From a candidate division WOR-3 bacterium (GTDB taxonomy: Bacteria > Hydrothermota > Tepidihabitantia > Tepidihabitantales > Tepidihabitantaceae): a stretch of DNA of 64,000 nt. The stretch spans positions 310,852 to 374,851 of the forward strand of contig JBDRTY010000001.1 in the NCBI GenBank assembly GCA_039801085.1, read 5' to 3'. This document shows positions 3,873-63,604 of this stretch, in pieces. Position 1 is the stretch's first letter; each line of letters opens with the position of its first letter. The translations under genes and the position numbers were made by a program. Below the pieces are notes generated by a model, which was not told the DNA's origin, ran no database searches, and saw nothing but the letters and a program-made list of their open reading frames with translations.

Positions 3873-4507
3873 GTCCCGGGCTTTTCGTCCGGGCGGTAAT
3901 GCTCGGTCTGTCTGCCGGCACATCCTGTCTCGGTTTCTGTCTGCCGGTGGTGCTGCCGGTGCTTGCCGGTTCGGACCGGGCCGGTTTTTATCCGGCAGCG
4001 GTCCGGCTGTTATCATTTCTGGCGGGCAGGCTGGTCGCCTATCTCCTTTTCGGTATTCTTGCCGGTCTTGCCGGCGCCCGGCTGAGCGGACCTGTTTTCC
4101 TGCGGACAGCAGCACTGCCGGTTATCTATCTCCTGCTGGGCGGATTGATGATAATTTACGGCATTACCGTCTTTGATCCGTTCACCCGGCTCAGGTTCTG
4201 CCGGCTGATTCAGCCCCAGCTCAATTCGGGCCGGTTTCCTTTTCTCCTCGGGCTGCTGGCAGGGGCAAGTCCCTGTCCGCCGTTTCTGCTCGCACTGGCA
4301 ACTGTTCTTGATTACGCCGGCGTGCTCAGCGGGGCGCTGTTCTTTCTGGTTTTCTTTCTGGCGACCTCGGTCTACTTTCTACCGCTGTTATTTGCCGGTT
4401 TTCTTGTCCGTTGGGATCCGCCCCGGAGCGCTGCCCGCATCGTGGCGGTGGTTACCGGATTTTACTTCGTGGTGCTCGCATTGCGCACACTGTTGAGCGT
4501 ATTTTGA
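3869..4507 (+). CDS. Polytopic membrane protein, DsbD/CcdA-like (thiol-disulfide transporter family) candidate
   Basis: About six hydrophobic helices, with Cys in SCLGFCLP and GASPCPPF motifs. Start overlaps the upstream gene (ATGA). Confidence 0.4.
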   Translation: MSPGLFVRAVMLGLSAGTSCLGFCLPVVLPVLAGSDRAGFYPAAVRLLSFLAGRLVAYLLFGILAGLAGARLSGPVFLRTAALPVIYLLLGGLMIIYGITVFDPFTRLRFCRLIQPQLNSGRFPFLLGLLAGASPCPPFLLALATVLDYAGVLSGALFFLVFFLATSVYFLPLLFAGFLVRWDPPRSAARIVAVVTGFYFVVLALRTLLSVF

Positions 4508-6675: not shown

Positions 6676-6722
6676 TCCAGAATATACCTTGTCAATTATT
6701 TTCCTGCGGGTATAATGAACTT

Positions 6723-8021
6723 GTGAGTGTTGAACTGGCACCCTTGGCGGACCGGATGCGGCCCAAGGAGCTGGACAGCATTGTCGGACAGGAGCATCTG
6801 CTGGGCAGAGACAAGCCGTTCCGGCGGATGCTGGAGCGGGGCGAACTGCACTCGATGATCTTCTGGGGTCCGCCCGGTTCCGGGAAGACGACCCTCGCCC
6901 TGGCAATTGCCCAATACACGGCTGCGGACTTCATTCAGATTTCCGCCGTTTCCTCCGGTGTCGCCGATATCCGCAAGGCGGTCAAACGGGCACAGGACAA
7001 CCGGCAGCTGTTCCGGCGCCGGACAATTCTCTTCATCGACGAGATTCACCGGTTCAACAAGGCACAGCAGGATGCGCTGTTGCCTTATGTCGAGTCCGGT
7101 GTGATTACGCTGATCGGTGCCACAACCGAGAACCCCTCATTTGAAGTGATTGCCCCGCTGCTTTCCCGGTGCCGGGTTTATGTGCTGAATCAGCTGCGCC
7201 CTGAGGAGCTGAAGGTGCTGATGCGCCGGGCGCTGGAGTCAGAGCAGGGGCTGGCAGGGCTCAAGCCCGAGGTCGGAGATGATGTCCTTGACTATTTTAC
7301 CGTCATCGCTCAGGGTGATGCGCGGGTGGCGCTGACCGCACTGGAGCTGGCGGTGATCTCCACCGAGCCGGATGAAACCGGAAAGCGCAGGGTGACGTGG
7401 GAGCTGGCACAGGAGATCGTCCAGCGGAAGTTTCTGCTTTATGACAAGGGGGGAGAGGAGCATTACAACCTGATTTCCGCCCTGCACAAGTCGCTCCGGG
7501 ATTCGGACCCGGACGGAGCGCTCTACTGGCTGGCACGGATGCTCGAGGCCGGCGAGGACCCGCTCTATATCGCCCGCCGACTGGTCAGGTTTGCCTCGGA
7601 AGACATCGGGCTGGCAGATCCGGATGCCCTGCTCGTTGCCAATGCCGCCAAGGAGGCGGTGGATTTTATCGGGATGCCGGAGGGTAATACCGCACTGGCG
7701 CAGGCGGTGATCTATCTGGCGCTGGCGCCGAAGTCCAATGCGGTCTATCAGGCATACCTGCGGGCAAAACAGGATGCACTCAACAGCCTCACCGAACCGG
7801 TTCCCCTGCATCTGCGCAATCCGGTGACCCCGCTGATGGAGAATCTGGGTTACGGCAAAGGATATAAGTATGCCCATGATTTTCCCGATGCCCGGGTGGA
7901 GCAGGAGCACCTGCCGGATTCACTCCGGGGCAGAAGATACTATTTTCCCACCGGCCGGGGATTTGAGGCGGAACTGAAAAAACGGCAGCGGCGGCCGGAC
8001 CGGGAAGAAGGTACTGATTGA
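6723..8021 (+). CDS. rarA: Replication-associated recombination protein A (AAA ATPase)
   Basis: Walker A GPPGSGKTT, and the LxxxIVGQEHLLG N-terminal motif of MgsA/RarA. 432 aa. Confidence 0.9.
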   Translation: MSVELAPLADRMRPKELDSIVGQEHLLGRDKPFRRMLERGELHSMIFWGPPGSGKTTLALAIAQYTAADFIQISAVSSGVADIRKAVKRAQDNRQLFRRRTILFIDEIHRFNKAQQDALLPYVESGVITLIGATTENPSFEVIAPLLSRCRVYVLNQLRPEELKVLMRRALESEQGLAGLKPEVGDDVLDYFTVIAQGDARVALTALELAVISTEPDETGKRRVTWELAQEIVQRKFLLYDKGGEEHYNLISALHKSLRDSDPDGALYWLARMLEAGEDPLYIARRLVRFASEDIGLADPDALLVANAAKEAVDFIGMPEGNTALAQAVIYLALAPKSNAVYQAYLRAKQDALNSLTEPVPLHLRNPVTPLMENLGYGKGYKYAHDFPDARVEQEHLPDSLRGRRYYFPTGRGFEAELKKRQRRPDREEGTD

Positions 8022-8170: not shown

Positions 8171-8494
8171 ATGATGATCCTCCTGACCCTTTTGCGGCTG
8201 AACCGGACGAGTATGAACCAGCTTGTCCAGACACTGGGGCTCTCGCGGGCAAATGCGAGCGGTCTGGTGGACCGGCTGGTGAGAAAGGGGCTGATCGAGC
8301 GCCGGCGTTCCGAGCAGGACCGGCGGCTGGTGCTGATTCAGCTGACTTCAGAGGGACAGCGGTTGGCACACCACCTTGCCCGGCAGAACCGGCAGGGGCT
8401 GCGCCGGATGATGAAGCGGATTCCCGAAGCCGATCTCAAGGTGTTCATTCAGACCCTGGAGCAGCTGGCGCTCGGCCTGGCGGACGGCGACTGA
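8171..8494 (+). CDS. MarR-family transcriptional regulator. The real start is probably upstream via a non-ATG codon (frame open from 8045).
   Basis: Winged-helix core LSRANASGLVDRLVRKGLIERRRSEQDRR. The upstream in-frame stretch LEWLGPLLVRGLKLL...EALGQEFSFSQ looks like a MarR N-terminus. Confidence 0.7.
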   Translation: MMILLTLLRLNRTSMNQLVQTLGLSRANASGLVDRLVRKGLIERRRSEQDRRLVLIQLTSEGQRLAHHLARQNRQGLRRMMKRIPEADLKVFIQTLEQLALGLADGD

Positions 8495-8504
8495 TCTTTT
8501 TTTC

Positions 8505-8539
8505 TTGACTGATAGTTAACATTATTTACAATTAACTAT
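8505..8539 (+). promoter_or_regulatory. Sigma70-like promoter (TTGACT-N16-TACAAT) overlapped by the inverted repeat ATAGTTAA-N12-TTAACTAT. Candidate MarR operator for the exporter operon.
   Basis: -35 at 8505..8510, -10 at 8527..8532. Palindrome arms at 8512..8519 and 8532..8539. It lies between marR and the MMPL gene. Confidence 0.5.
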
Positions 8540-13029: not shown

Positions 13030-13057
13030 TTGACACCTGCTGATGATGCAATATAAT
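13030..13057 (+). promoter_or_regulatory. Sigma70-like promoter TTGACA-N16-TATAAT. It predicts a leaderless GTG start at 13066.
   Basis: -35 at 13030..13035, -10 at 13052..13057. Only 8 nt separate the -10 from the start codon. Confidence 0.45.
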
Positions 13058-13065
13058 GGCTAATC

Positions 13066-14295
13066 GTGCGATTTGCAAGATTATTATCCTTCCTGCTGCC
13101 GGTTTTCATTCTGCTGATACTTTTTTCCGCCTGTGCCCGGCATGAGGTCAAGCCGGCAGAGCGGTTCGTGACCGTCTTTGTTTCCTCTGGACTCACACCC
13201 GAGGGGCGGGCAGGAATGGCAAAACTGGTGGCGGAGATAAGAGGCAGAACACCGGTTATCTGGATTGACGGTGGCATCTCAGCAGACACCCGCGGACCGC
13301 TCCGGTTCAGCGATGGTGAACTGCTTACTGACCTGCCCTCGGCTGCGGGGTGCGATGTGGTCCTGCTGACTTCGGACTGGCTCGGGTTCGGGGTGAACCG
13401 GCTGAAACTGCTGGTGGACCGGGCACGGCTGCGGGTGCTGTGTGCCAATCTTGAGGACAGCCTGGGCATGCCGGTTGCCCATCCCTGGATGACCAGAAAT
13501 GCCGGCGGGATCAGTTTCGGTATCACCGCGCTCTATACCGACACCAGCGACTGGCGCCGGTATCAGCAGGGATTAAGGCTGATTTCCCCTGAATATGCGG
13601 CAAGGAAGATTTCCGGGCTTATTGCCCGCAATACCGATTTCCGGCTACTCATTCTGCCCGCAGGCGCCAGTGGTCAGTTCAGCGGTTATGACCTGACTTT
13701 AACCGCTGAGCCGGGCAGGGTTTTCCGTTATGATCTGGTATTCCTTGGTTCCCGGCTGAACAACCTGACAAAAACCGAGCTTGACCTGAATTCACTTGTG
13801 CCCGAACCCGCGGTTCAGCAGCGGATTGACTCCCTGCTTGCGGAATATGAAACCCGGGCACAGGCACCGGTTATCGAGAGCCGGGTAAAAATTCCGCCCC
13901 GGATTCTGCGCAAGGCGGTCATTGACGGGCTGATGGACCTGAGGCTGGCAGAGGTGATTGTCTATGATACGCTCCGGCTGGTCCGGGATACGATATTTCC
14001 CGGTATGATCACCCAACGCCGGCTGGCTGAGGTCTTTACCGAACCCGGCAGATGGGCGCTGGTCCAGCTGGAGGGGAGCGAAATCCGCCAGCTTGCCAGT
14101 CAGCCGGGATTGAAAATTGAGACCAGAAAAAATCTGCCCGGTGGCAGACTGATGGCACACAAGAGATACCGGGTAATGATGCCTGCGAGTCTGCTTGAGG
14201 CGCATCCGGAAATCTATACCCGCGGGTTTGAATTCACACTCCTGCCCCTTTATCAGTATGCGGCGGACATCCTGCAGGCACAGGGGAAGCGATGA
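13066..14295 (+). CDS. Lipoprotein with a 5'-nucleotidase C-terminal-like domain (hypothetical)
   Basis: Lipobox LFSAC. C-terminal segment GMITQRRLAEVFTEPGRWALVQLEGSEIRQL resembles the UshA C-terminal fold pattern. Confidence 0.45.
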   Translation: MRFARLLSFLLPVFILLILFSACARHEVKPAERFVTVFVSSGLTPEGRAGMAKLVAEIRGRTPVIWIDGGISADTRGPLRFSDGELLTDLPSAAGCDVVLLTSDWLGFGVNRLKLLVDRARLRVLCANLEDSLGMPVAHPWMTRNAGGISFGITALYTDTSDWRRYQQGLRLISPEYAARKISGLIARNTDFRLLILPAGASGQFSGYDLTLTAEPGRVFRYDLVFLGSRLNNLTKTELDLNSLVPEPAVQQRIDSLLAEYETRAQAPVIESRVKIPPRILRKAVIDGLMDLRLAEVIVYDTLRLVRDTIFPGMITQRRLAEVFTEPGRWALVQLEGSEIRQLASQPGLKIETRKNLPGGRLMAHKRYRVMMPASLLEAHPEIYTRGFEFTLLPLYQYAADILQAQGKR

Positions 14296-17667: not shown

Positions 17668-19279
17668 ATGGCTAGTTTACAAGATTTTTCATTGATAACA
17701 TCCGAAATCGCTTACTTAAAGAAAAGATACAGAATAAATGAGTTTTCCCGTGCGTTTATATATGCAGTATTAGAAAAACTATACGAAATCGATATAGATG
17801 AAATAGAAAATTATGTCATAGACGGCGCTTATGATTTTGGCATTGATGCTTATTATTGGGAAGATGCAAGAGCCGACGGAAGAAAAACTATAAATATTTT
17901 TCAATTTAAACATACTGAAAAATTCGAAAATGCGCAAAAAGCAGATGCCTTTCGAGAACGGGATGTTAATGATATTATTGTCAAACTTGAGAGAATCTGG
18001 CATAAAGATGGGTCATTACTGAAATCCCCCAACAGGCGGTTCACGCAGTTAGTCCAGGAGATGTGGGATGCTTTTAATAAAGGGGTAATACAAACGAAAG
18101 TTTGGCTGATTTCTAACTATATTAATTCGATTAGCGATAAGAATAAAATTAAGCATTTCGAAGTGACTGTGCGAGAAAAATTTAAAGCAGATCTTGAAGT
18201 ATGGTCGCTTGATGAATTGGTTTCATTGTTTATAAAAAAAGATTTTCGACCTGTGGATTTGAATTTGCAGTTGAGCGGCAGGCGGTATTTTGATACTACT
18301 ACCGGACAGGTTCGAGCTGTTGTTGGCGTAATTAATGCACATGAACTAATAAAAAAAGTTATCAACGAAAATGATGAATTGAGGGAGGAGATATTTAACG
18401 AAAATATAAGAGTATACTTAACCAGAAATACAAAGGTTAACAGCCAAATTTACAGGACAATAGAAGCCGAACGTGAAAATGCTAATTTCTTTTTCTATAA
18501 CAATGGAATAACAGTAATTTGCGATAGTTTGGTACATGCAAATACAGATAGCCCCGTAGTTGCATTAAAAAATTTTCAGATAGTCAATGGAGGACAAACG
18601 ATTCATGCTCTTTATGAGGCTTATAAAAACAATTTATCTGAGAACATTAAAAACATAGACTTGCTTCTAAGAATTTACGAAGTTAAAAATAGAGATATAG
18701 GACAAGCTATTGCGCGATACACTAACACGCAAAATCCCGTTAGAAGCAGAGATATAATGTCGAACGATCCCGTACAAATTAAAAAAAATAGATGCCGAGA
18801 AGGCGGGGCAAGTAATACTAGCTTTTTATCTGGAGAAGCCAGGAAGCGCTAAGAACAAGAAAAGGGAAATCTTTGGCGATTATTATCAAGAAATATTTGA
18901 TGAAAGCAAAATCGATGCTAAATATGTTCTACTGCCTTATCTGCTTTATGAAAAGATAAATCAAGATATAAGACGAATAAGACAGGAGGAGAAGAAATAT
19001 AAAAGTAATCCTAAAAAGTTGAATGCGTTAGCCAAAGATGAGTTTGTAAAACACGCAGGTTATTATTTATTATTGGGGTTAAAATTTTTTGCTAACAAAA
19101 AGGGGTTAGATTTGAATTTAGATAATACAGGCAAGATCTTTAAAAATTACAAAGATGTTAAAAAAGTTTTAAGAGATATTGTCAAACAACGTATAAGTAG
19201 GTTTCAGGAGAATTTAGTTGATTTGTTCAAAAGTGATGATTTAGTCGAAGAATTGAGGTGTAAGATCTACCAAATATAA
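17668..19279 (+). pseudogene. AIPR-family abortive-infection (phage resistance) protein, disrupted by a 1-nt frameshift in an A8 homopolymer (18781..18788)
   Basis: N-terminal DGAYDFGIDAYY, and the core NFQIVNGGQTIHALYEA (NGxQT). The C-terminal AIPR region IDAEKAGQVILAFYLEKPG...EIFGDYYQEIF continues in the -1 frame from the A-run through to 19279. Confidence 0.65.
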
Positions 19280-19297
19280 ATATAAATAATAGATACC

Positions 19298-20494
19298 ATG
19301 ATTCTAATTTCTATACTAGGAGTATTGGTAATTGTGTTATTTGTAATGTGGTTATCTCGAAGTTCTCAAAAAGCTGCACGTTCAAAAATACACCCCAAGG
19401 GCGAACGGCTAGTAGATGACAGTCACGGTATCTGCAAAAGTGCAAATTTACAATGCGCTGATGATAATGCAGTAGTAGCAGCTACCAATAACGGTTATAT
19501 AATAAATCCTCAAAGCACATTTCCGTTGACCATTTATAACGTTGATCGAGAAACTGCAATTATAATAAAAAAGCTACTTGATACAAAATGCTTTATTGGC
19601 AATGCGCAGGAACTGGTTCCTGTAATTCTTAAAACAAATCTTCGCTGTAAAGAGATCGAGGACTACATCAATACATTCAAACCGCAATATTTTCGTAAAA
19701 TTGAGGAATTGAAACAATCTTCGTCTGAATGGCAATCTGCATCTGAAAAAGATAAAGAGGACTTACTTGCATATTTTCGCGAACAGGCAATTGAATCTCT
19801 GGATATTAGACCATACTGTGACTTGGAGGTATTATTTGAATGTGAACCAGAGGATTTTACCATTGACGACGCTTTGCTTGAGCGATACGGCTATGATGTA
19901 CTACAGGTATATTTAAAATATGCAGGTGATATTAACAAAGTGCGAATCCTACCAGCCGGTCACTTTGAACGTAAAAAATTTGACAGGTTAGTAGAGTTGG
20001 GATTAGCAATAAATGGATATGAAATTGATTCGAAAGCACTTTTAAGCTCGCTGACACTTAAACAGCTTAACGAAATTGCAGCCAGTTTGCAGGAGAAGCC
20101 ATTTAGTCGCAAAAGCAAGGCAATAGAATTTCTAGCGTCACTGCCCGACGTGAGGGGAAAAGTTGGTACTGTGATTGCTCTTAGAGAAGTTTTCCAATTG
20201 CGACCGCTACCGCCAGAATTCTCGCACATAGACCTGAAGAAAATATCTGATATATGGTGTTATGTTTCTGAGATTGCCGAGCTGATAACACATACTTATC
20301 ATATGGGGAATTATGCAAAACAGGACATGCAGAATAATCTTAGTTTGTCCGTAAATATTAGCGAGTGGAAGATTTTGACTGCAGGTGATTCATCGTGCCC
20401 ATATTGCAAGCGTGCTGCGCTCAAAGTATATCCGGCAAATCAGTACCCTAGAGTTCCTTTGCACATAGGATGTAGATGTACAGTAATAAATTGA
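19298..20494 (+). CDS. Hypothetical membrane-anchored protein with a C-terminal Cys/His motif (CPYC...PLHIGCRC), in an operon with the AIPR gene
   Basis: Starts 18 nt after the AIPR stop. One N-terminal TM helix. The C-terminus resembles the conserved motif of phage Mu-F/SPP1 gp7 family proteins. AT-rich like the AIPR gene. Confidence 0.5.
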   Translation: MILISILGVLVIVLFVMWLSRSSQKAARSKIHPKGERLVDDSHGICKSANLQCADDNAVVAATNNGYIINPQSTFPLTIYNVDRETAIIIKKLLDTKCFIGNAQELVPVILKTNLRCKEIEDYINTFKPQYFRKIEELKQSSSEWQSASEKDKEDLLAYFREQAIESLDIRPYCDLEVLFECEPEDFTIDDALLERYGYDVLQVYLKYAGDINKVRILPAGHFERKKFDRLVELGLAINGYEIDSKALLSSLTLKQLNEIAASLQEKPFSRKSKAIEFLASLPDVRGKVGTVIALREVFQLRPLPPEFSHIDLKKISDIWCYVSEIAELITHTYHMGNYAKQDMQNNLSLSVNISEWKILTAGDSSCPYCKRAALKVYPANQYPRVPLHIGCRCTVIN

Positions 20495-30080: not shown

Positions 30081-30127
30081 GCGCATACGGGGATTGACAT
30101 CGGTAATTTGGTGATTATCATTGACCC

Positions 30128-32029
30128 GTGATTAAGGTTGTTGTCCAAGGAGAGGAACGGCAGGTTGAACCGGGTTTGACTGCCGGTGCCCTGCTTGCTG
30201 ATGAGCGGGCGCTGGCGGCGCGGGTGAACGGCCGGCTGGTGGATCTTTCCTTCCGGATTGAGGAGGATGCCACAATCGAGCCGGTGTATTTTGAGTCCCG
30301 GGAGGGCAGGGAGATCTTCTGGCATTCGGCTTCGCATCTGATGGCGCAGGCGGTGAAGCAGCTTTATCCCGAGGCAAAGGTGACGATCGGTCCGGCGGTG
30401 CCCGAGGGGTTTTATTATGATTTTGATGTTCCTGAGCCGTTTACCGAGAAGGATCTGGAGAGAATTGAGGCAAGGATGCGCGAGCTGGCGACACAAAAGA
30501 TTCCGATTGTCCACAGGTATCTGCCCCGGAAGGAGGCGCTGAAGCTTTTCTCCGGGCGGAATGAGACTTATAAGCTGGAGATTATTAACGAGATCCCGGA
30601 TGAGCAGATATCGGTCTATGAGCAGGGGGATTTTGTTGATCTGTGCCGGGGACCGCATGTTCCAGATACCGGCAGGATTAAGGCGGTTAAGCTTCTGAGT
30701 GTTGCCGGTGCCTACTGGCGCGGTGATGAGCGGAACCGGATGCTTTCCCGGATTTACGGGGTCGCCTTTCCGGATGAGGCGCTGCTTAAGGAGCATCTGG
30801 AGCGGCTGGAGGAGGCAAAACGGCGCGATCACCGGAGGCTGGGACCGGCGCTGGGGCTGTTCAGTTTTCATGAGGAGGCGGGTGCCGGGCTGGTGTTCTG
30901 GCATCCAAAAGGGGCAACAGTTCGCCGGCTGATTCAGGAGTACTGGGAGAGGGAGCATTTAGCTGCCGGCTATCAGCTGGTGGTGACACCGCATATCGCC
31001 CGGAGTCAGCTGTGGCATCAGTCCGGACATTATGATTATTACCGGGAGAATATGTATATTCTGCCAGTGGAGAATGAGGAGTATGTGCTGAAGCCGATGA
31101 ATTGTCCCGGGCATATTCTGATTTACCGGACCAGGGTCCATTCCTATCGGGAGCTGCCGTTGCGGATGGCTGAATGGGGCACAGTTTACCGCTATGAGCG
31201 TTCCGGTGTGCTGCACGGGATGATGCGGGTAAGGGGGTTTACTCAGGATGATGCCCATATCTTCTGCACCCGGGAGCAGGTGGAGGAGGAGATTTACGGT
31301 GTGGTGGCGCTGGCACTGAAGATGCTGCGGCAGTTCGGGTTTGAGCGGTTCTCGGTATCCCTGTCGGTCCGGGACCCGAAGCATCCGGAGAGGTATCTGG
31401 GTACGGATGAGCAGTGGCAGGTGGCAGAGGGTTCGCTCGTTAAGGCGCTGGAGCGGGTGGGGCTGGATTTCGTCCGGGCTGAGGGGGAGGCGGTGTTTTA
31501 CGGTCCGAAGATCGATATCCATCTCGCCGATTCGCTGGGCCGGGAGTTTCAGTGTTCTACCTGTCAGTTTGATTTCAATCTGGGTGGCAAGTTTGATGTG
31601 TATTATATGGATCAGTATGGTCAGCATCTGCCGGTCTATCTGGTGCACCGGACCGTCCTGGGTTCAATCGAGCGGTTTATGGGGATCCTGGTTGAGCATT
31701 ACGGCGGGGCGTTTCCGGTCTGGCTGGCACCGGTGCAGGCGCGGGTGATGACCGTGACCGAGAAGGAGAACGGCTATGCGCAGGAGGTTTACGAGGCACT
31801 GCGAAAGGCTGATGTCAGAGTTGAAATTGATCTGAATAATGATAAAATTAACTACAAAATTGGTGAGGCAGAGCGGGAGAAGATTCCCTTTATGCTGGTG
31901 GTCGGGGCACGCGAAGCCGAGGCAAGGACCGTCGCACTCCGCCGCCGGGGTAAGGGGAATCTGGGCGCAATGCCGCTGGAGAAGGTAATAGCACTAATCA
32001 AGGAGGAAGAATCTGGAAGGACACGGTGA
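30128..32029 (+). CDS. thrS: Threonine--tRNA ligase
   Basis: TGS N-terminal domain, class II aaRS motifs, HxxxH, C-terminal anticodon-binding domain. 633 aa. Confidence 0.9.
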   Translation: MIKVVVQGEERQVEPGLTAGALLADERALAARVNGRLVDLSFRIEEDATIEPVYFESREGREIFWHSASHLMAQAVKQLYPEAKVTIGPAVPEGFYYDFDVPEPFTEKDLERIEARMRELATQKIPIVHRYLPRKEALKLFSGRNETYKLEIINEIPDEQISVYEQGDFVDLCRGPHVPDTGRIKAVKLLSVAGAYWRGDERNRMLSRIYGVAFPDEALLKEHLERLEEAKRRDHRRLGPALGLFSFHEEAGAGLVFWHPKGATVRRLIQEYWEREHLAAGYQLVVTPHIARSQLWHQSGHYDYYRENMYILPVENEEYVLKPMNCPGHILIYRTRVHSYRELPLRMAEWGTVYRYERSGVLHGMMRVRGFTQDDAHIFCTREQVEEEIYGVVALALKMLRQFGFERFSVSLSVRDPKHPERYLGTDEQWQVAEGSLVKALERVGLDFVRAEGEAVFYGPKIDIHLADSLGREFQCSTCQFDFNLGGKFDVYYMDQYGQHLPVYLVHRTVLGSIERFMGILVEHYGGAFPVWLAPVQARVMTVTEKENGYAQEVYEALRKADVRVEIDLNNDKINYKIGEAEREKIPFMLVVGAREAEARTVALRRRGKGNLGAMPLEKVIALIKEEESGRTR

Positions 32030-33740: not shown

Positions 33741-33774
33741 AGTTTAGGGTTGAGTTGGGGTCTGTCAACCCGAT

Positions 33775-33802
33775 TTGACCGGCAGATAGCCGGTTTTATA
33801 AT
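33775..33802 (+). promoter_or_regulatory. Sigma70-like promoter TTGACC-N16-TATAAT, with a small palindrome ACCGGC-AGATA-GCCGGT in the spacer
   Basis: -35 at 33775..33780, -10 at 33797..33802. Upstream of the DUF2229 gene pair. Confidence 0.4.
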
Positions 33803-33808
33803 CAGGGT

Positions 33809-34759
33809 GTGCCCAGTGTCGGGATTGCCCGGAGTCTGCACAGTTATCACCATTTTACTTTCTGGCGGGCGTTTTTTGAGGCGCTGGGATGGGAGGTGAT
33901 GCTCAGCGGCAGGACCGACCGGCAGACGGTGGAGCAGGGGGTGAAGCTGGCGCCAGCCGAGCTGTGTCTGCCGGTGAAGGTTTTTCTGGGGCAGGTTGCC
34001 CGGCTGCTCGAGCAGGCGGAGTATGTGTTTGTGCCGCGGCTGGTCTGCCGGCAGTTGAGGGGAGATTTTTATTTCGGCTGTCCGAAGGCGATTGCCCTGC
34101 CGGATCTGGTGCGGGCGATTTTTCCACAGCAAAAGGGACGCATTCTGGAGCTGGTGATTGATCAGCAGACTCAGCGCGATGAGGATGGTTTTGTCCGGTG
34201 TGCAAAGGCACTCGGTATGGACCGGCAGCGTGCTCACCGCGCCTTCCAGCAGGCAAAAATGGCTGAGGCAGGAAAATTGCGGGGACAGGGTGCCAGCCCG
34301 GCAGATTGCTTTCCGCCGGAGCGGTTGAGTTTAATGCGGGAGGCGGGCAGGGGAAAAATTGGCGTTATCGGTCATCCGTATCTGGTTTATGATGAGCATA
34401 TCAGTCTTGGGCTGCTCAGGATGATTGCGGAACTGGAGGCTGTGCCGGTGATTCCTGAAGTCGGGGAGGAGGAGCTGATTCAGGAGGCGGGCAGGGGAAG
34501 GGCGTTGAACTGGTATTATGAACTGGAGCTGATCGCGGGGGCACGGAAGATTGTCCGGGATGAGCAGGTTGACGGGTTGCTGCTGGTTTCCAGTTTTGCC
34601 TGCGGTACCGCACCGGTGGTGAATGAGCTGATCCGGCGCGAGGTGGCGGTCCGAGCCGGTCTGCCGATGCTGACGCTGCTTTTTGATGAGCACAGTGGTG
34701 AAACCGGTCTGCGCACCAGGCTGGAGGCGTTTGGGGAGCTGATTAAGGCGCGAAGATGA
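33809..34759 (+). CDS. DUF2229 / 2-hydroxyacyl-CoA dehydratase D-component-like protein (activase-associated family), first of two paralogs
   Basis: N-terminal pattern G.ARSL..Y..FTFWRAFFEALGWEV.LS..T......EQG.KLAP.ELCLPVKV. Confidence 0.45.
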   Translation: MPSVGIARSLHSYHHFTFWRAFFEALGWEVMLSGRTDRQTVEQGVKLAPAELCLPVKVFLGQVARLLEQAEYVFVPRLVCRQLRGDFYFGCPKAIALPDLVRAIFPQQKGRILELVIDQQTQRDEDGFVRCAKALGMDRQRAHRAFQQAKMAEAGKLRGQGASPADCFPPERLSLMREAGRGKIGVIGHPYLVYDEHISLGLLRMIAELEAVPVIPEVGEEELIQEAGRGRALNWYYELELIAGARKIVRDEQVDGLLLVSSFACGTAPVVNELIRREVAVRAGLPMLTLLFDEHSGETGLRTRLEAFGELIKARR

Positions 34760-57090: not shown

Positions 57091-57094
57091 CGCA

Positions 57095-57803
57095 GACACA
57101 GCAAAGAGATTTCTCCGCTCCGGTTGAGATGATCCTTTCTGTCATTCCGAGTGGAGCGAAGCGGAATCGAGGAATCCCTTTTTTCTTCTTCCGTCATTCC
57201 GAGCCTGTTGAGGAATCTCCTTCAAGAGATTTCTCGACTCCGCCCTTCGGGCTCCGCTCGAAATGACCGAAAGGGAAGTCATTCCGCGCCTGTCGAGGAA
57301 TCGCTTTTAAGGGATTTCTCCACTGCGGTCGAAATGACGAAAAGGGAAGTCATTCCGGGCTTGTCGAGGAATCTCTTTTAAGCGATTTCTCCACTCCGCC
57401 TCGCTCTGCTCGGCTCCGGTCGAAATGACCGAAAAAAAATGTGCCTGCGGCTTCGCTCCGGTCGAAATGACCCTTACTTGTCATTCCGGGTGGAGCGAAG
57501 TGGAAGCGGTGAATCTCCTTTTTCTCAGACTGAGAGGGATTTCTCGACTGCGCTCGAAATGACCCAAACAGGTTACTGCGGTCGGATAGACCTCTGCGGG
57601 TCGTTCCATGCCTTTCTTTTATTGTCATTCCGAGTGAAGCGAAGCGGAATCGAGGAATCTCTCTTTTCTTCTTCCGTCATTCCGCGCCTGTCGAGGAATC
57701 TTCTTCAAGAGATTTCTCGACTCCGCCCTTCGGGCTCCGCTCGAAATGACCGTTTTATTATTGTGTCATTCCGGGCGAGGCGTCAGCCGAGTCGAGGAAT
57801 CGG
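57095..57803. repeat. Tandem array (about 9 units) of degenerate imperfect-palindromic repeats (gtcattccg...cgaggaatc...gatttctc...cgaaatgac), 40-80 nt each, separated by ~10-nt a/g-rich linkers
   Basis: Unit starts at 57141, 57193, 57278, 57349, 57480, 57624, 57676, 57765. Each unit's two arms are near-reverse-complements (gtcattYcg / cgRaatgac, cgaggaatc / gatttctcg). Confidence 0.7.
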
Positions 57804-57823
57804 TAAATCAGTGCAAAATGCAA

Positions 57824-57864
57824 AATCTGTCAAGCTGTTGACAGATTCAAATGCTGCTTATAAT
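57824..57864 (+). promoter_or_regulatory. Sigma70-like promoter (TTGACA-N15-TATAAT), with a perfect 10-bp inverted repeat AATCTGTCAA-gctg-TTGACAGATT over the -35. Candidate operator.
   Basis: IR arms at 57824..57833 and 57838..57847. -35 at 57838..57843, -10 at 57859..57864. Confidence 0.5.
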
Positions 57865-57884
57865 TACTGTGAGCCGATGAGTTT

Positions 57885-57909
57885 CTACTCTACTCTACTC
57901 TACTCTACT
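57885..57909 (+). repeat. (CTACT)5 pentanucleotide microsatellite in the 5' leader
   Basis: ctactctactctactctactctact lies ~20 nt downstream of the -10. The paralogous locus has 10 copies. Confidence 0.8.
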
Positions 57910-58056
57910 CTACTCCTTATTACTCCAATATCTTAACCCCTCGGGTGAGGTGCGGGCAGGCAGGCGGTGCTGCTGGCGGCAGTCTGCTGCCAGCGGTTGG
58001 AAGTCAGCAGGCAACCTGATAGATTTAAATCATTAAAAGCGGAAAGGAGGTTGAGG

Positions 58057-59658
58057 ATGAAAAAGGCAAGTTTGTTCAGGTTGCTGATTTTAAGCACCGC
58101 AGTGCTCGCGGGGGCGATGTTAGCACAGGAGTGGGAAAGGCTGGAAGATGTGCCGGTTCCGGTTCAGCGCTGGGCATGTCTGACATATTCCTACAGCGAG
58201 TATGGTTCAAGGTCCTATGACACGGTCTGGGGTGTCTTTCCGGCACCTGCCTACGGCAAAACCTGGTTCCTTTATTACGACTGTGTTGACGGCCACTGGC
58301 ATTATCCCGCTGATTCGGTGATCAACCGGGATATGAAACAGACCGCTTTGACCTTTCAATGGCTGGAAGAGGGAGTTGTTTATCTTGTGGGGCAGACATT
58401 GGACGGAGACAACCTCTTCTGGTATCCGTTGAATGAAGGGCGCTGGCATTCAGAGCCGATAACTGCCTTTGCTCTTGGTCCCCGTCCCGGGCTGGCATAT
58501 AAAGCAAATCCCGGCTACAACCAGCAGCTTGAGCCGATACCGGGCTGGCTTTACTGTCTTGCCGGTGGTGGTCAGCAGTTCTGGCGCTACTGGCTGCCGA
58601 GCAGTTATCCGCCGGTGACGGTGGATGGCATCTACCCGGCTCAGGGTGCCCTGATTGCAGATCAGACACCGGTGTTCATCTGGCAGGAGGAAGGGGCAGC
58701 GATTGAATACCGGCTGGTGGTGGCGACCGATCCACAGTTTAGTAACACGGTGATCAATGTCATCACCACGGTGCCGCAGTATTAGGTGGAGACCAGACTG
58801 GCAAATGGCGACTATTACTGGCAGACCGCATCCCGGAGTGCAGGCAGTGGCTGGAAGACCGGACCGGTGCACAGCTTCCGGCTTCAGGGTGGCTGGGAGC
58901 GGCTGGCAGATATCCCGACGCGGGTTGGTGATGGCGGGGCGCTTGCCTACTGCGGGAAGTTCTTCGGCACATCTTCAGACATCTTCATTGCCTTTGTCGG
59001 GGGCGGCGACACCGTCTGCTACGCCTATGTGGACGAGTATAATCGCTGGGTGCGGCTGTATAGTGAAGAGTATGTGCCTCCGCAGAACATCGGCGCAGCT
59101 CTGAGTGCGCATCGGGGGCTTTATATGGACCGAGGGACTCCTTATGCTATTTGGGGGATTGGTGATAACTATTTTCGATTTTATGAGTGGGGGAGATGGA
59201 CTCAAGGAGCTCCAGCGCTCCCAGAAGATATCGGGCCGGGTGCATCTTTAGCTGTGGGGCGGTACCATTTACAACCTTATGGCGCTTATCTTTACTTCAT
59301 TCCCGGGTCCGATCCAAGAAATGGAACACCAAGAGTCTCCTTCTGGCGAAAGCTGGTCTTTGCTTATGACGGGCAGACAAAGGTACAGAAGTCGGGTGGA
59401 ATGGGTGATGAGGGGTTGTATAGCAATCAGATGATTCTGGCTGGTGGTAAAGGGGTGATAGCTTATGTGCTGGACCGACCGGCGAATGTGCGGATAGCGG
59501 TTTTTGATGCTGCGGGCAGAAGGGTTGCTCTGCCATATGCTGGCAGGCAGGATGGAGGTCACCATCTGGTCCGCTGGCATTTCAAGGGTGCCGGAGCGTA
59601 TTTTGTCCTTGTTGACATTGACGATGAAAGGCATAAATTCAAGGTGGTTGTGCGGTAG
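58057..59658 (+). pseudogene. T9SS-secreted surface protein (paralog of 61698..63545) with an in-frame TAG at 58783..58785 inside a conserved Fn3-like segment
   Basis: GAAAGGAGG RBS. Signal peptide MKKASLFRLLILSTAVLAG is identical to the paralog. ORFs 57967..58785 and 58786..59658 share frame 1. CTD ...GAYFVLVDIDDERHKFKVVVR. Confidence 0.55.
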
Positions 59659-59716
59659 AACAAAGGTAAAGGCGGCGGGGCGGAATTGCCCCGCCGCACA
59701 AAGGGGCAGAGGGTTG

Positions 59717-61060: not shown

Positions 61061-61423
61061 GAAAGGGATTTCTCCACTGCGCTCGAAATGACATAAACAG
61101 GTTACTGCGGTCGGATAGACCTCTGCGGGTCGTTCCATGGCTTTGCTTTCTTGTCATTCCGAGTGAAGCGAAGCGGAATTGAGGAATCCCTTTTTTCTTC
61201 TTCCGTCATTCCGCGCCTGTCGAGGAATCTCCTTCAAGAGATTTCTCGACTCCGCCCTTCGGGCTCTGCTCGAAATGACCGAAAGAGAAGTCATTCCGCG
61301 CCTGTCGAGGAATCTCTTTTAAGCGATTTCTCCACTCCGCCTCGCTCTGCTCGGCTCCGGTCGAAATGACCGTTTTATTATTGTGTCATTCCGCGCGAGG
61401 CGTCAGCCGAGTCGAGGAATCGG
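61061..61423. repeat. Second, shorter copy of the tandem palindromic-repeat array (4-5 units), homologous to 57525..57803
   Basis: Unit starts at 61153, 61205, 61290, 61385. Also shares the unique ~60-nt segment caaacaggttactgcggtcggatagacctctgcgggtcgttccatg. Confidence 0.7.
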
Positions 61424-61443
61424 TAAATCAGTGCAAATTGCAA

Positions 61444-61485
61444 AATCTGTCAAGCTGTTGACAGAATTCAAATTCTGCTTATAAT
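61444..61485 (+). promoter_or_regulatory. Paralogous promoter/operator: AATCTGTCAA-gctg-TTGACAGAAT, then TTGACA-N16-TATAAT
   Basis: -35 at 61458..61463, -10 at 61480..61485. One-base insertion in the right IR arm and spacer relative to copy 1. Confidence 0.5.
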
Positions 61486-61505
61486 TACTGTGAGCCGATG
61501 AGTTT

Positions 61506-61555
61506 CTACTCTACTCTACTCTACTCTACTCTACTCTACTCTACTCTACTCTACT
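61506..61555 (+). repeat. (CTACT)10 pentanucleotide microsatellite in the 5' leader
   Basis: Ten perfect tandem CTACT copies. The flanks are identical to the (CTACT)5 locus. Confidence 0.8.
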
Positions 61556-61697
61556 CCTTATTACTCCAATATCTTAACCCCTCGGGTGAGGTGCGGGCAG
61601 GCAGGCGGTGCTGCTGGTGGCAATCTGCTGCCAGTGGTTGGAAGTCAGCAGGCAACCTGATAGATTTAAATCATTAAAAGCGGAAAGGAGGTTGAGG

Positions 61698-63545
61698 ATG
61701 AAAAAGGCAAGTTTGTTCAGGTTGCTGATTTTAAGCACCGCAGTGCTCGCGGGTATTGCGTTTGGAAGATGGGAGCCGCTTGATCCGGTTGGCGATGGTG
61801 AAGTGGTTGGTCCTGGCGGCTGTGCGGCACGGGGTAGGGGCTACACCTTCGTTGCAATAGGGGATGGGAGGAGGAAGGTATATGCATTTGATCATGAGGG
61901 TGAAATGTGGGATGAAATAGAAGTACCGATGCCCGAGGCAATTGATTATGCCGGCGCGATGGCATATGAACTTGGATATGGACGTCATTTGTATGTTGTG
62001 ACTGATGAAAGCGGAGGAAAACTTCAGGTGTATCGTTTTTATGAAAATGAAGACTTGGAAGGCGAGTGGTTGCCACCGATTCCATTACCGGAATCAATCG
62101 GTCCTGGTGTGGCACTGGCCTTTGTTCCCTGTGTGAGGGCAGACACAACCCATATTGGTGACCTTTACCTTCTGGTGGGAAAATGCACCCGACATTTTTA
62201 CCGGCGTTCATTTGACTGGATCGCCGAGCTTGATGCCCTCGGTCCGGGCAATGATGCGGAAATAACGGTGCAGGATATCTGTCTTGACTGGCTCCCTGAT
62301 CCCTGGTGGGATTCATACCGGTTACAGGTGTCATCCAATGCAGATTTTACCAGCCTGGTGCTGGATACGGTGATATCGGTTGGTGAATTCAAACCAGCAG
62401 GTGCGGTATTCCCCTCTGCAACCGGCACTTATTACTGGCGGGTCCGGGGTATTAAAGACGGGCATCACTCGGACTGGTCCGAAGCTCAAAGTTTCACTTT
62501 AGCCCAGCAGAATACCTCTCTCAATTACGAGATTATTCCTGCCGATGGGTTGCTGATAAGCGGTGATGAGCTGGTATTTGACTGGCAGCCTCAGAGTGAT
62601 GCGGAATCCTACCGGCTGCAGGTGGCGCTATCCCCGGATTTTTCCGAGCCGGTGATTGATGTTATTACCGATGTGAGTGAATGGGTGGCAGAGCAACCGC
62701 TTGAGACTGGCACATACTACTGGCGGGTGTGCTGCCGGAGAGCAAATGGCTGGGACAGCTGGACTCAACCGATTGAGTTTCAGGTTGAATACGGCTGGCA
62801 GCGACTGCCGGACATTCCATCTGACACCCCGGTTGGAGCCGGTGGTGCGATGTGCTATGTTAAGGCCAGGGATGGTGATACTATGGCACTCTATGTGCTG
62901 GTGGGGAATGGCAGCAGTCAGTTCTGGCGGTTCAATCTCAGTGAGGGTGGAGTCTGGCAGGAGCGGGCTGAAACCCCTTATCCGCAGACCGGCGGCGCAG
63001 CAATTACATCATATCAGAGGTGGCAGCAATCAAGCGACCTGTGGGCGATTTTTGGCGATTTGGTGGAATTCAGGCGTACTTTCAAAATAAATCATAACGG
63101 TTGGGCGAGAATTGATCATCCTCTTCCCCGGGTTTGCGAATACGGTTCATCGATTGTTCGCAACGAGCCTGATTACCATCTTGTTTTAGTCGTTGCCGGT
63201 GAATATCCTGAGGACAGCACCAACTTTTATGCCTGGGTGCCGGATACGGCTAAGGACGGAGAGGAGGGTGCGCAGGCGCGGTCGGCGGGCTTTGGTCCAG
63301 CCGATGTCCGGTTTGGGCGCACCGGCTCTGATCTGTGGCTGAATTACACGCTCTCGGAGCCGGCAGCAGTGGATATCGGTCTGTTTAACCCTGCGGGTCA
63401 GAAGGTGGCAAGTTTATATTCAGGGTGGCAAAGCGCCGGTTGTCATCAGCACCGATACAGACCCGGTTCGCTGATAAAGGGGGTTTGCTTTATCAGGGTT
63501 GACATTGCGGGCAGAAGCACTACTATCAAGCTAACCGCATGGTAG
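61698..63545 (+). CDS. T9SS-secreted surface protein with two Fn3-like modules (intact paralog of 58057..59658)
   Basis: GAAAGGAGG RBS and the same signal peptide. Repeated YRLQVS..DF......TGTYYWRV modules. CTD ...GVCFIRVDIAGRSTTIKLTAW. A GC hairpin follows at 63560..63584. Confidence 0.6.
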   Translation: MKKASLFRLLILSTAVLAGIAFGRWEPLDPVGDGEVVGPGGCAARGRGYTFVAIGDGRRKVYAFDHEGEMWDEIEVPMPEAIDYAGAMAYELGYGRHLYVVTDESGGKLQVYRFYENEDLEGEWLPPIPLPESIGPGVALAFVPCVRADTTHIGDLYLLVGKCTRHFYRRSFDWIAELDALGPGNDAEITVQDICLDWLPDPWWDSYRLQVSSNADFTSLVLDTVISVGEFKPAGAVFPSATGTYYWRVRGIKDGHHSDWSEAQSFTLAQQNTSLNYEIIPADGLLISGDELVFDWQPQSDAESYRLQVALSPDFSEPVIDVITDVSEWVAEQPLETGTYYWRVCCRRANGWDSWTQPIEFQVEYGWQRLPDIPSDTPVGAGGAMCYVKARDGDTMALYVLVGNGSSQFWRFNLSEGGVWQERAETPYPQTGGAAITSYQRWQQSSDLWAIFGDLVEFRRTFKINHNGWARIDHPLPRVCEYGSSIVRNEPDYHLVLVVAGEYPEDSTNFYAWVPDTAKDGEEGAQARSAGFGPADVRFGRTGSDLWLNYTLSEPAAVDIGLFNPAGQKVASLYSGWQSAGCHQHRYRPGSLIKGVCFIRVDIAGRSTTIKLTAW

Positions 63546-63604
63546 CGGAGATAAAACCGGGAGGGGCGGATCCGTCCCCTCCCGACATTCAGGAAGACTG
63601 GGCA

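Follow-up and report, generated by a model that had tools for sequence, protein, structure and literature searches.

A putative operator palindrome overlapping the −35 element of duplicated surface-protein promoters in a candidate division WOR-3 bacterium

The window analysed here, that is, the whole stretch of 64,000 nucleotides taken from contig JBDRTY010000001.1 of a candidate division WOR-3 bacterium, carries on its + strand two operons which are each headed by a surface-protein gene. Surface-protein gene 1 (58057-59658) specifies a signal peptide and a T9SS-like C-terminus and contains an in-frame TAG codon at 58783-58785; the reading frame runs on past this codon to 59658, the TAG aligns near a conserved W/V of the Ig-like repeat of the paralog, and it is likely to be a nonsense mutation or the mark of a pseudogene. 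Surface-protein gene 2 (61698-63545) encodes a protein of 615 amino acids that is also present in assembly GCA_039801065.1, and its homologs, the closest of which is annotated as WOR-3, are described as T9SS type A sorting or FlgD-Ig domain proteins of this candidate division. At the end of each of these first genes a promoter-like site, TTGACA-N16-TAAATT or TACTAT, was noted (59612-59697 and 63471-63584) together with a GC-rich perfect hairpin (59672-59697 and 63558-63584), and the second gene of each pair may thus possess its own promoter.

Both genes are preceded by the same arrangement of elements, contained within a segmental duplication of approximately 0.6-0.7 kb (57532-58112 versus 61061-61753). 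The order of this module is a MITE/REP-like repeat array, a (TGCAAAA)n stretch, a palindrome followed by a −10 hexamer, a leader of approximately 190-210 nt with a (TCTAC)n repeat, and the first 19 or so codons, corresponding to the signal peptide. The array upstream of operon 1 consists of GTCATTCCG...CGAGGAATC units (57091-57825) and ends in (TGCAAAA)2 at 57812-57826, directly abutting the palindrome, while the same array occupies 61061-61445 upstream of the second copy. A third copy of the module follows operon 2 just past the end of the window (L001 3590-4014, with its palindrome at 3944-3963), and at this locus at least three operons stand in tandem, every one of them beginning with this combination of repeat array, promoter, leader and signal peptide. 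Palindromic MITE/REP-like units of the types GTCATTCCG...GCGAAGCGGAATCGAGGAATC and GATTTCTCGAC...CTCGAAATGAC exhibit 86-93% identity between two WOR-3 lineages, and such arrays are also present in L083, L084 and L079, with assemblies often being broken there.

The palindrome itself had been described by the first-pass annotation as a perfect 10-bp inverted repeat, and our analysis confirmed this for copy 1, AATCTGTCAA-GCTG-TTGACAGATT, which spans 57824-57847 around a 4-nt centre, as well as the near-copy AATCTGTCAAGCTGTTGACAGAAT at 61444-61467. The claim that the right arm contains a TTGACA −35 element was likewise verified for both copies, each of which matches a consensus sigma-70 promoter of the form TTGACA-N15/16-TATAAT. 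In copy 1 the −35 hexamer (57838-57843, + strand) forms the inner part of the right arm and is separated by a 15-nt spacer from the −10 hexamer TATAAT (57859-57864, + strand), while the + strand promoter of copy 2 (61458-61485; −35 at 61458-61463, −10 at 61480-61485) possesses a spacer of 16 nt, also as previously reported, and a 12/12 match to the consensus. We infer the promoter from this match and from the occurrence of the same architecture elsewhere in the window, where TTGACA-N16-TATAAT is found directly upstream of many genes and of one tRNA, which makes the promoter reading credible. All of the other intergenic TTGACA-N16-TATAAT promoters in the window lack the left arm of the palindrome, indicating that this arm is not a general promoter feature. 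At four positions (6689-6723, 13030-13066, 30094-30128 and 33775-33809) a consensus −10 hexamer ends just 6-8 nt before a predicted GTG start codon, which suggests that leaderless mRNAs are widespread in this genome, in contrast to the approximately 190-nt leaders of the surface-protein genes.

The palindrome is not a chance feature of the window. No match to it was obtained in any of 100 dinucleotide-preserving shuffles, even when up to three mismatches were allowed, and a count of perfect inverted repeats (arms ≥10 bp, loops ≤10 nt) gave four in the window, as compared to a mean of 0.83 in shuffled sequences, the remaining three being GC-rich and terminator-like. What is perfect in both copies are the 8-bp arms TCTGTCAA and TTGACAGA; the core palindrome TCTGTCAA-GCTG-TTGACAGA lies at 57826-57845 in copy 1, where the longer 57824-57847 repeat adds 2 bp on each side, and an identical 20 bp is found at 61446-61465 in copy 2. 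The outer AA of the left arm is part of the (TGCAAAA)n stretch with which the upstream array ends, and another end of such an array is without the palindrome; the functional candidate is therefore the 20-bp core, and the conserved unit is the 8-bp arms only (TCTGTCAA-N4-TTGACAGA). A look-alike at 33761-33782, TCTGTCAA-N6-TTGACC, differs in spacing and was treated as a chance occurrence.

Comparison of the copies of the module indicates that it evolves in concert. The 5′ regions are 90-99% identical, whereas the mature proteins encoded behind them share just 28-49% identity, and in a sister assembly (L091), in which gene 2 is 98% identical, the protein of the upstream operon is only 28% identical to that of gene 1 of the window, so that a different cassette occupies the first position, yet is headed by the same module. 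As a consequence of this concerted evolution, the invariance of the palindrome among module copies represents weak evidence of constraint, and the two copies in the window count as a single observation. When five copies of the module are aligned, all five have an unchanged core, while the spacer between the −35 and −10 hexamers is variable at 4 of 13 columns. GAAT coupled with a 16-nt spacer occurs in four of the five alleles, which come from three assemblies, and the one-base insertion that had been proposed for copy 2 is therefore better explained the other way around: copy 1 has lost one A, GAAT with the 16-nt spacer being the common state. This derived 1-bp deletion yields both the 'perfect 10-bp' arms and the 15-nt spacer of copy 1. 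The related suggestion that the two paralogs might respond differently to the same regulator found no support, as the 1-bp difference falls beyond the conserved 8-bp arms and chiefly alters the −35/−10 spacing, in a copy whose gene carries the in-frame TAG.

Downstream of the −10 hexamer, the predicted 5′ leader of operon 1 (57871-58056, + strand), with a putative transcription start approximately 7 nt past the hexamer, contains (TCTAC)6.4 at 57884-57915, and that of operon 2 (61492-61697, + strand) contains (TCTAC)10.4 at 61505-61556. Further (TCTAC)n tracts are located at L001 116-145, at L091 121-130 and 4031-4040, at L084 10101-10067 on the minus strand, and in L125. At the locus of copy 2, a further assembly of this species has six repeats; a sister strain has two, and near-identical assemblies of the second lineage described below (SKW181) have seven versus eight. 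The tract is hypervariable, which suggests slipped-strand variation. A candidate short upstream ORF passes through the repeat (57877-57936 and 61498-61677), starting 12 nt after the −10 hexamer at an ATG codon, or at GTG in the SKW181 module; the repeat number would shift its frame and stop, giving 19 amino acids that end 120 nt before the main ATG in one case and 59 amino acids that end 20 nt before it in the other. No Shine-Dalgarno sequence was found at this ORF, which is regarded as speculative. In the minimum free energy folds of both leaders the Shine-Dalgarno sequence AAGGAGG is paired with a CUCCUU segment that directly follows the repeat (57913-57925 with 58039-58050 in copy 1, and the equivalent positions in copy 2), and this segment may possibly act as an anti-SD element. 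The folds of the two leaders are no more stable than those of shuffled sequences (z = 0.2 and 1.3), Rfam returned no matches in the promoter or leader at either gathering or relaxed thresholds, and inspection of the leader by eye revealed no sigma-54 promoter of the GG-N10-GC type. A distant ortholog (L088) has a long leader with (GACA)4 at 250-275 and a conserved segment of approximately 130 nt that is also present in L089; it may be that genes of this family repeatedly carry simple repeats in their leaders.

A scan for the motif in one genome per species identified it in a second lineage, that of WOR-3 bacterium SKW181 (L036), at two sites. The first of these, found in L036, L084 and L124-L127, reads TCTGTCAA-CCGG-TTGACAGA-N14-TATAAT, with a ribosome-binding site and a start codon behind it; the genes downstream are one for a BNR-like protein, which sources label as T9SS type A sorting, and then one for an MFS transporter. 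The flanks of this site bear no similarity to the module of the window, the promoter is non-homologous, and no repeat array adjoins it. The second site is located 7.4 kb from the first in the same genomes, on the other strand and upstream of an S8 peptidase gene, and it represents a diverged version of the whole module, comprising an array end, TGCAAA repeats, TTTGTCAA-TCTA-TTGACAGA, TATAAT, GAGCCGGTGAGTT, (TCTAC)7-8 and the next 45 nt or so of the leader, with approximately 83% identity to the module of the window over some 150 nt. Owing to a deletion of 6-7 nt in its spacer, TTGACA at this site is just 9 nt from TATAAT, and an alternative promoter, TTGACA-N15-TAAATT, is possible. The S8 peptidase gene is frameshifted at a T8-9 run (L084 9650-9700, minus strand; L124 16849-17151), with an N-terminal ORF of 95 amino acids set against a body of 966, a split that could reflect a slippery tract, a pseudogene or an assembly error.

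Across the three sites from two lineages, albeit a small sample, the arms agree at 47 of 48 positions, whereas the centres read GCTG, CCGG and TCTA. The alleles of the first SKW181 site in L083 and L084, a single pair, do not differ at any position of the 20-bp core, while about 10 of 35 intergenic positions (approximately 29%) outside the core and the −10 hexamer do, including all three nucleotides directly to the left of the arm. At this level of divergence an unchanged core would be expected by chance with a probability of 0.71^20, or approximately 0.001, and an unchanged left arm plus N4 alone with one of approximately 0.016. Both the recurrence in a second lineage and this comparison of alleles are in keeping with a site bound by a dimeric protein.

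The expectation that such a site should also occur elsewhere was thereby borne out for SKW181-like WOR-3, but not for the orthologous promoters of more distant relatives, since L088 (54% protein identity), L094 (38%) and L095 (a 56% ortholog of the SKW181 protein) retain a TTGACA-type −35 element without the left arm. Orthologs P0002 and P0006 were left out of this promoter comparison because their contigs break just upstream of the gene. The scan of one genome per species yielded 69 loci, mostly in unrelated lineages (Variovorax, the Bacillus cereus group, Acidobacteriaceae and the candidate phyla radiation), many of which are A-run/hairpin/T-run structures or lineage-specific sites, and a universal motif was rejected, these loci having no common origin. 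In metagenomes, the palindrome coupled with TATAAT was found at 17 loci representing approximately seven families, while none of 27 loci from viral contigs were related. One of the metagenome loci (L074) carries the same palindrome at the promoter of a MarR gene whose protein was assigned to Candidatus Aerophobetes; this was rejected as a lead to the regulator, as the left arm is not preserved in orthologs that are 80% and 71% identical, and it illustrates that a strong −35 box can acquire an identical palindrome in the absence of constraint. Our survey of the literature on the motif and on WOR-3 and T9SS promoters returned nothing relevant.

No regulator gene was found near any of the sites, either in the window or beside the SKW181 sites. 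A Pfam scan of the proteins encoded by the window detected only one transcription factor, of the MarR family (8171-8494), and a role for the palindrome as the operator of this local MarR is contradicted by the MarR region itself, which carries a different inverted repeat, ATAGTTAA-N13-TTAACTAT at 8511-8539, without TCTGTCAA. Within 8171-8539 the MarR gene is followed by TTGACT-N16-TACAAT, which overlaps this repeat ahead of a gene for an MMPL/RND-like transporter, and ATAGTTAA-N13-TTAACTAT is probably the MarR operator. Elsewhere in the window, a low-GC island at 18001-20000 (34% as compared to approximately 56%) adjoins a gene (17668-18852) whose product has an AIPR (abortive infection) domain and is probably an acquired defence island.

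We propose that the 20-bp dyad TCTGTCAA-N4-TTGACAGA is a putative repressor operator of a small, lineage-restricted WOR-3 regulon, a plausible reading to which the comparative data lend modest support and to which we assign an even chance of being correct. According to this proposal, a dimeric DNA-binding regulator restricted to a sub-lineage of WOR-3 would bind the dyad, whose right half-site is the −35 hexamer and whose centre would lie at approximately −36 from the predicted transcription start; the bound dimer would cover approximately −46 to −27 and exclude sigma region 4, thereby repressing by occlusion promoters of operons whose products are secreted or surface proteins with C-termini of the T9SS type. 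We infer that a protein binds, in which direction it regulates and where transcription starts, and repression by occlusion represents the economical reading because the core promoter is already consensus and needs no activator. The first-pass annotation had spoken of a classic repressor operator, and of this the dyad symmetry over the −35 element of a consensus promoter stands, as does the recurrence at independent, non-homologous promoters with conserved arms and a variable centre, while the corresponding regulator gene was not encountered at the sites. A mutant form of the left arm in which the −35 box is kept (TCTGTCAA to TCTCAGAA) is proposed as a control.

The main rival to this reading is that the palindrome is incidental, a strong −35 element (TTGACAGA) having been mirrored by luck at the array junction and then kept by duplication or gene conversion. 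The homogenisation of module copies in spite of the differing genes behind them favours such an origin, as do the absence of the motif from distant orthologous promoters (38-56% protein identity), the unconserved left arm of the same palindrome at the Aerophobetes MarR promoter, and counts in genomes, metagenomes and viruses that, with related genomes collapsed, are not far above rough chance. It does not readily account for identical 8-bp arms with identical spacing at a non-homologous promoter of a related lineage that also has the module, nor for the core that is unchanged between L083 and L084 next to a left arm whose three adjoining nucleotides have all changed, and we consider it rather unlikely. 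The dyad could also be bound by an activator or a dual regulator from the CRP/FNR class; read as TGTCA-N6-TGACA, it has both the geometry and the near-sequence of CooA/CRP-class sites: the inner 16 bp reads TGTCA-AGCTGT-TGACA in the window and TGTCA-ACCGGT-TGACA in SKW181, and the 5-N6-5 dyad is the geometry of CRP-family sites. It is only in this geometry that the dyad resembles a class II activator site, as its centre at approximately −36 corresponds neither to −41.5 nor to −61.5, the −35 box and the remainder of the core promoter are consensus and would make activation unnecessary, conservation extends over 8 bp per arm (TCTGTCAA) and thus beyond the 5-bp half-site of the CRP type, and no CRP/FNR gene was seen in the window; this explanation is quite unlikely.

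An alternative at the level of DNA or RNA structure is that the palindrome forms a hairpin, which would insulate against or terminate read-through transcription entering from the gene and array upstream, or would be a target of the repeat elements. The 10-bp stem with its 4-nt loop has a predicted stability of −8.7 kcal/mol as DNA (z = −3.5), a terminator scan lists the palindrome on the minus strand, and the repeat array stops exactly at its left edge, but just 3 of 10 stem pairs are G-C, the + strand is without a T-run, and the genes from 58057 onwards are on the + strand, so that there is no minus-strand gene there to terminate. Together with the first SKW181 site, which has no adjoining array, and the other array end, which has no palindrome, these features make a hairpin function very improbable. 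Even less is to be said for a bidirectional promoter whose arms are back-to-back −35 hexamers: this architecture is suggested by two unrelated metagenome loci, L081 and L087, where TATAAT, a ribosome-binding site and a start codon occur on both sides of the palindrome, but an opposite −10 with a divergent gene is confined to these two loci. On the minus strand of the window only CTGATT or TGATTT is present at 16-17 nt, the promoter scan reported no minus-strand promoter using the left arm, and the upstream region consists of the repeat array only; we regard a bidirectional promoter as highly improbable. An invertible promoter or recombination site does not correspond to what was found either, the copies being direct duplicates of a 0.6-0.7 kb block rather than inverted and no recombinase being seen in the window, and a recombination site was rejected as the 4-nt centre is too short and differs between sites within one genome.

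If the operator reading is correct, the dyad would be one of the earliest concrete proposals of a cis-regulatory element in candidate division WOR-3, linking a small set of secreted T9SS-type proteins as a regulon and providing a bait sequence for its regulator. A repressor site on a −35 box is by itself textbook biology, the setting being what is unusual, as it is repeat-rich, and the surrounding module with its hypervariable (TCTAC)n is of more interest than the palindrome. Taken together, the identical 5′ blocks, the length-varying repeat and a module that has been retained in different WOR-3 lineages point tentatively to programmed variation of the cell surface. Taken one step further, the palindrome, promoter, (TCTAC)n leader and signal peptide might constitute a portable module heading interchangeable WOR-3 T9SS surface-protein cassettes, in which the dyad would provide on/off control by a regulator and the repeat stochastic, phase-variable control; this is a doubtful and, in our estimation, unlikely extension, which if true would reveal a surface-variation system in a phylum without a cultured model. 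Its nearest parallels are the vlp/vsp genes of Mycoplasma, with their homopolymer tracts, and the opa genes of Neisseria, with CTCTT repeats, in which a near-identical block of promoter, leader and signal peptide likewise precedes divergent tandem surface-protein paralogs and contains a hypervariable simple-sequence repeat, here (TCTAC)n with 2 to 10 copies between assemblies. Unlike in those systems, the repeat here lies in the 5′ leader or a possible upstream ORFrather than in the spacer of the promoter or in the principal coding sequence; phase variation is putative in the present case, and the palindrome is without a described counterpart in vlp/vsp or opa.

With respect to the dyad, CRP/FNR-family sites, such as TGTGA-N6-TCACA for CRP and TGTCA-N6-CGACA for CooA, are alike in the inner 16 bp, TGTCA-N6-TGACA here, but are positioned at −41.5 of weak promoters, whereas the present dyad is centred at approximately −36 of a consensus promoter and has more than 5 bp conserved per half-site. 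The closer resemblance is to classical operators that overlap the −35 element, such as those of MarR at marO, of TetR-family regulators and of Rex, which share with it a short dyad flanked by A/T-rich sequence, half-sites spaced by one helical turn, a strong overlapping core promoter and a freely varying centre. The Rex ROP site, TTGTGAA-N4-TTCACAA, has the same arm-N4-arm geometry and is one base per half-site apart, with TGTGAA in place of the TGTCAA found here. The classical operators act on redox, efflux or resistance genes, whereas the element described here is limited to a sub-lineage of WOR-3 and has secreted T9SS-type proteins as its putative targets.
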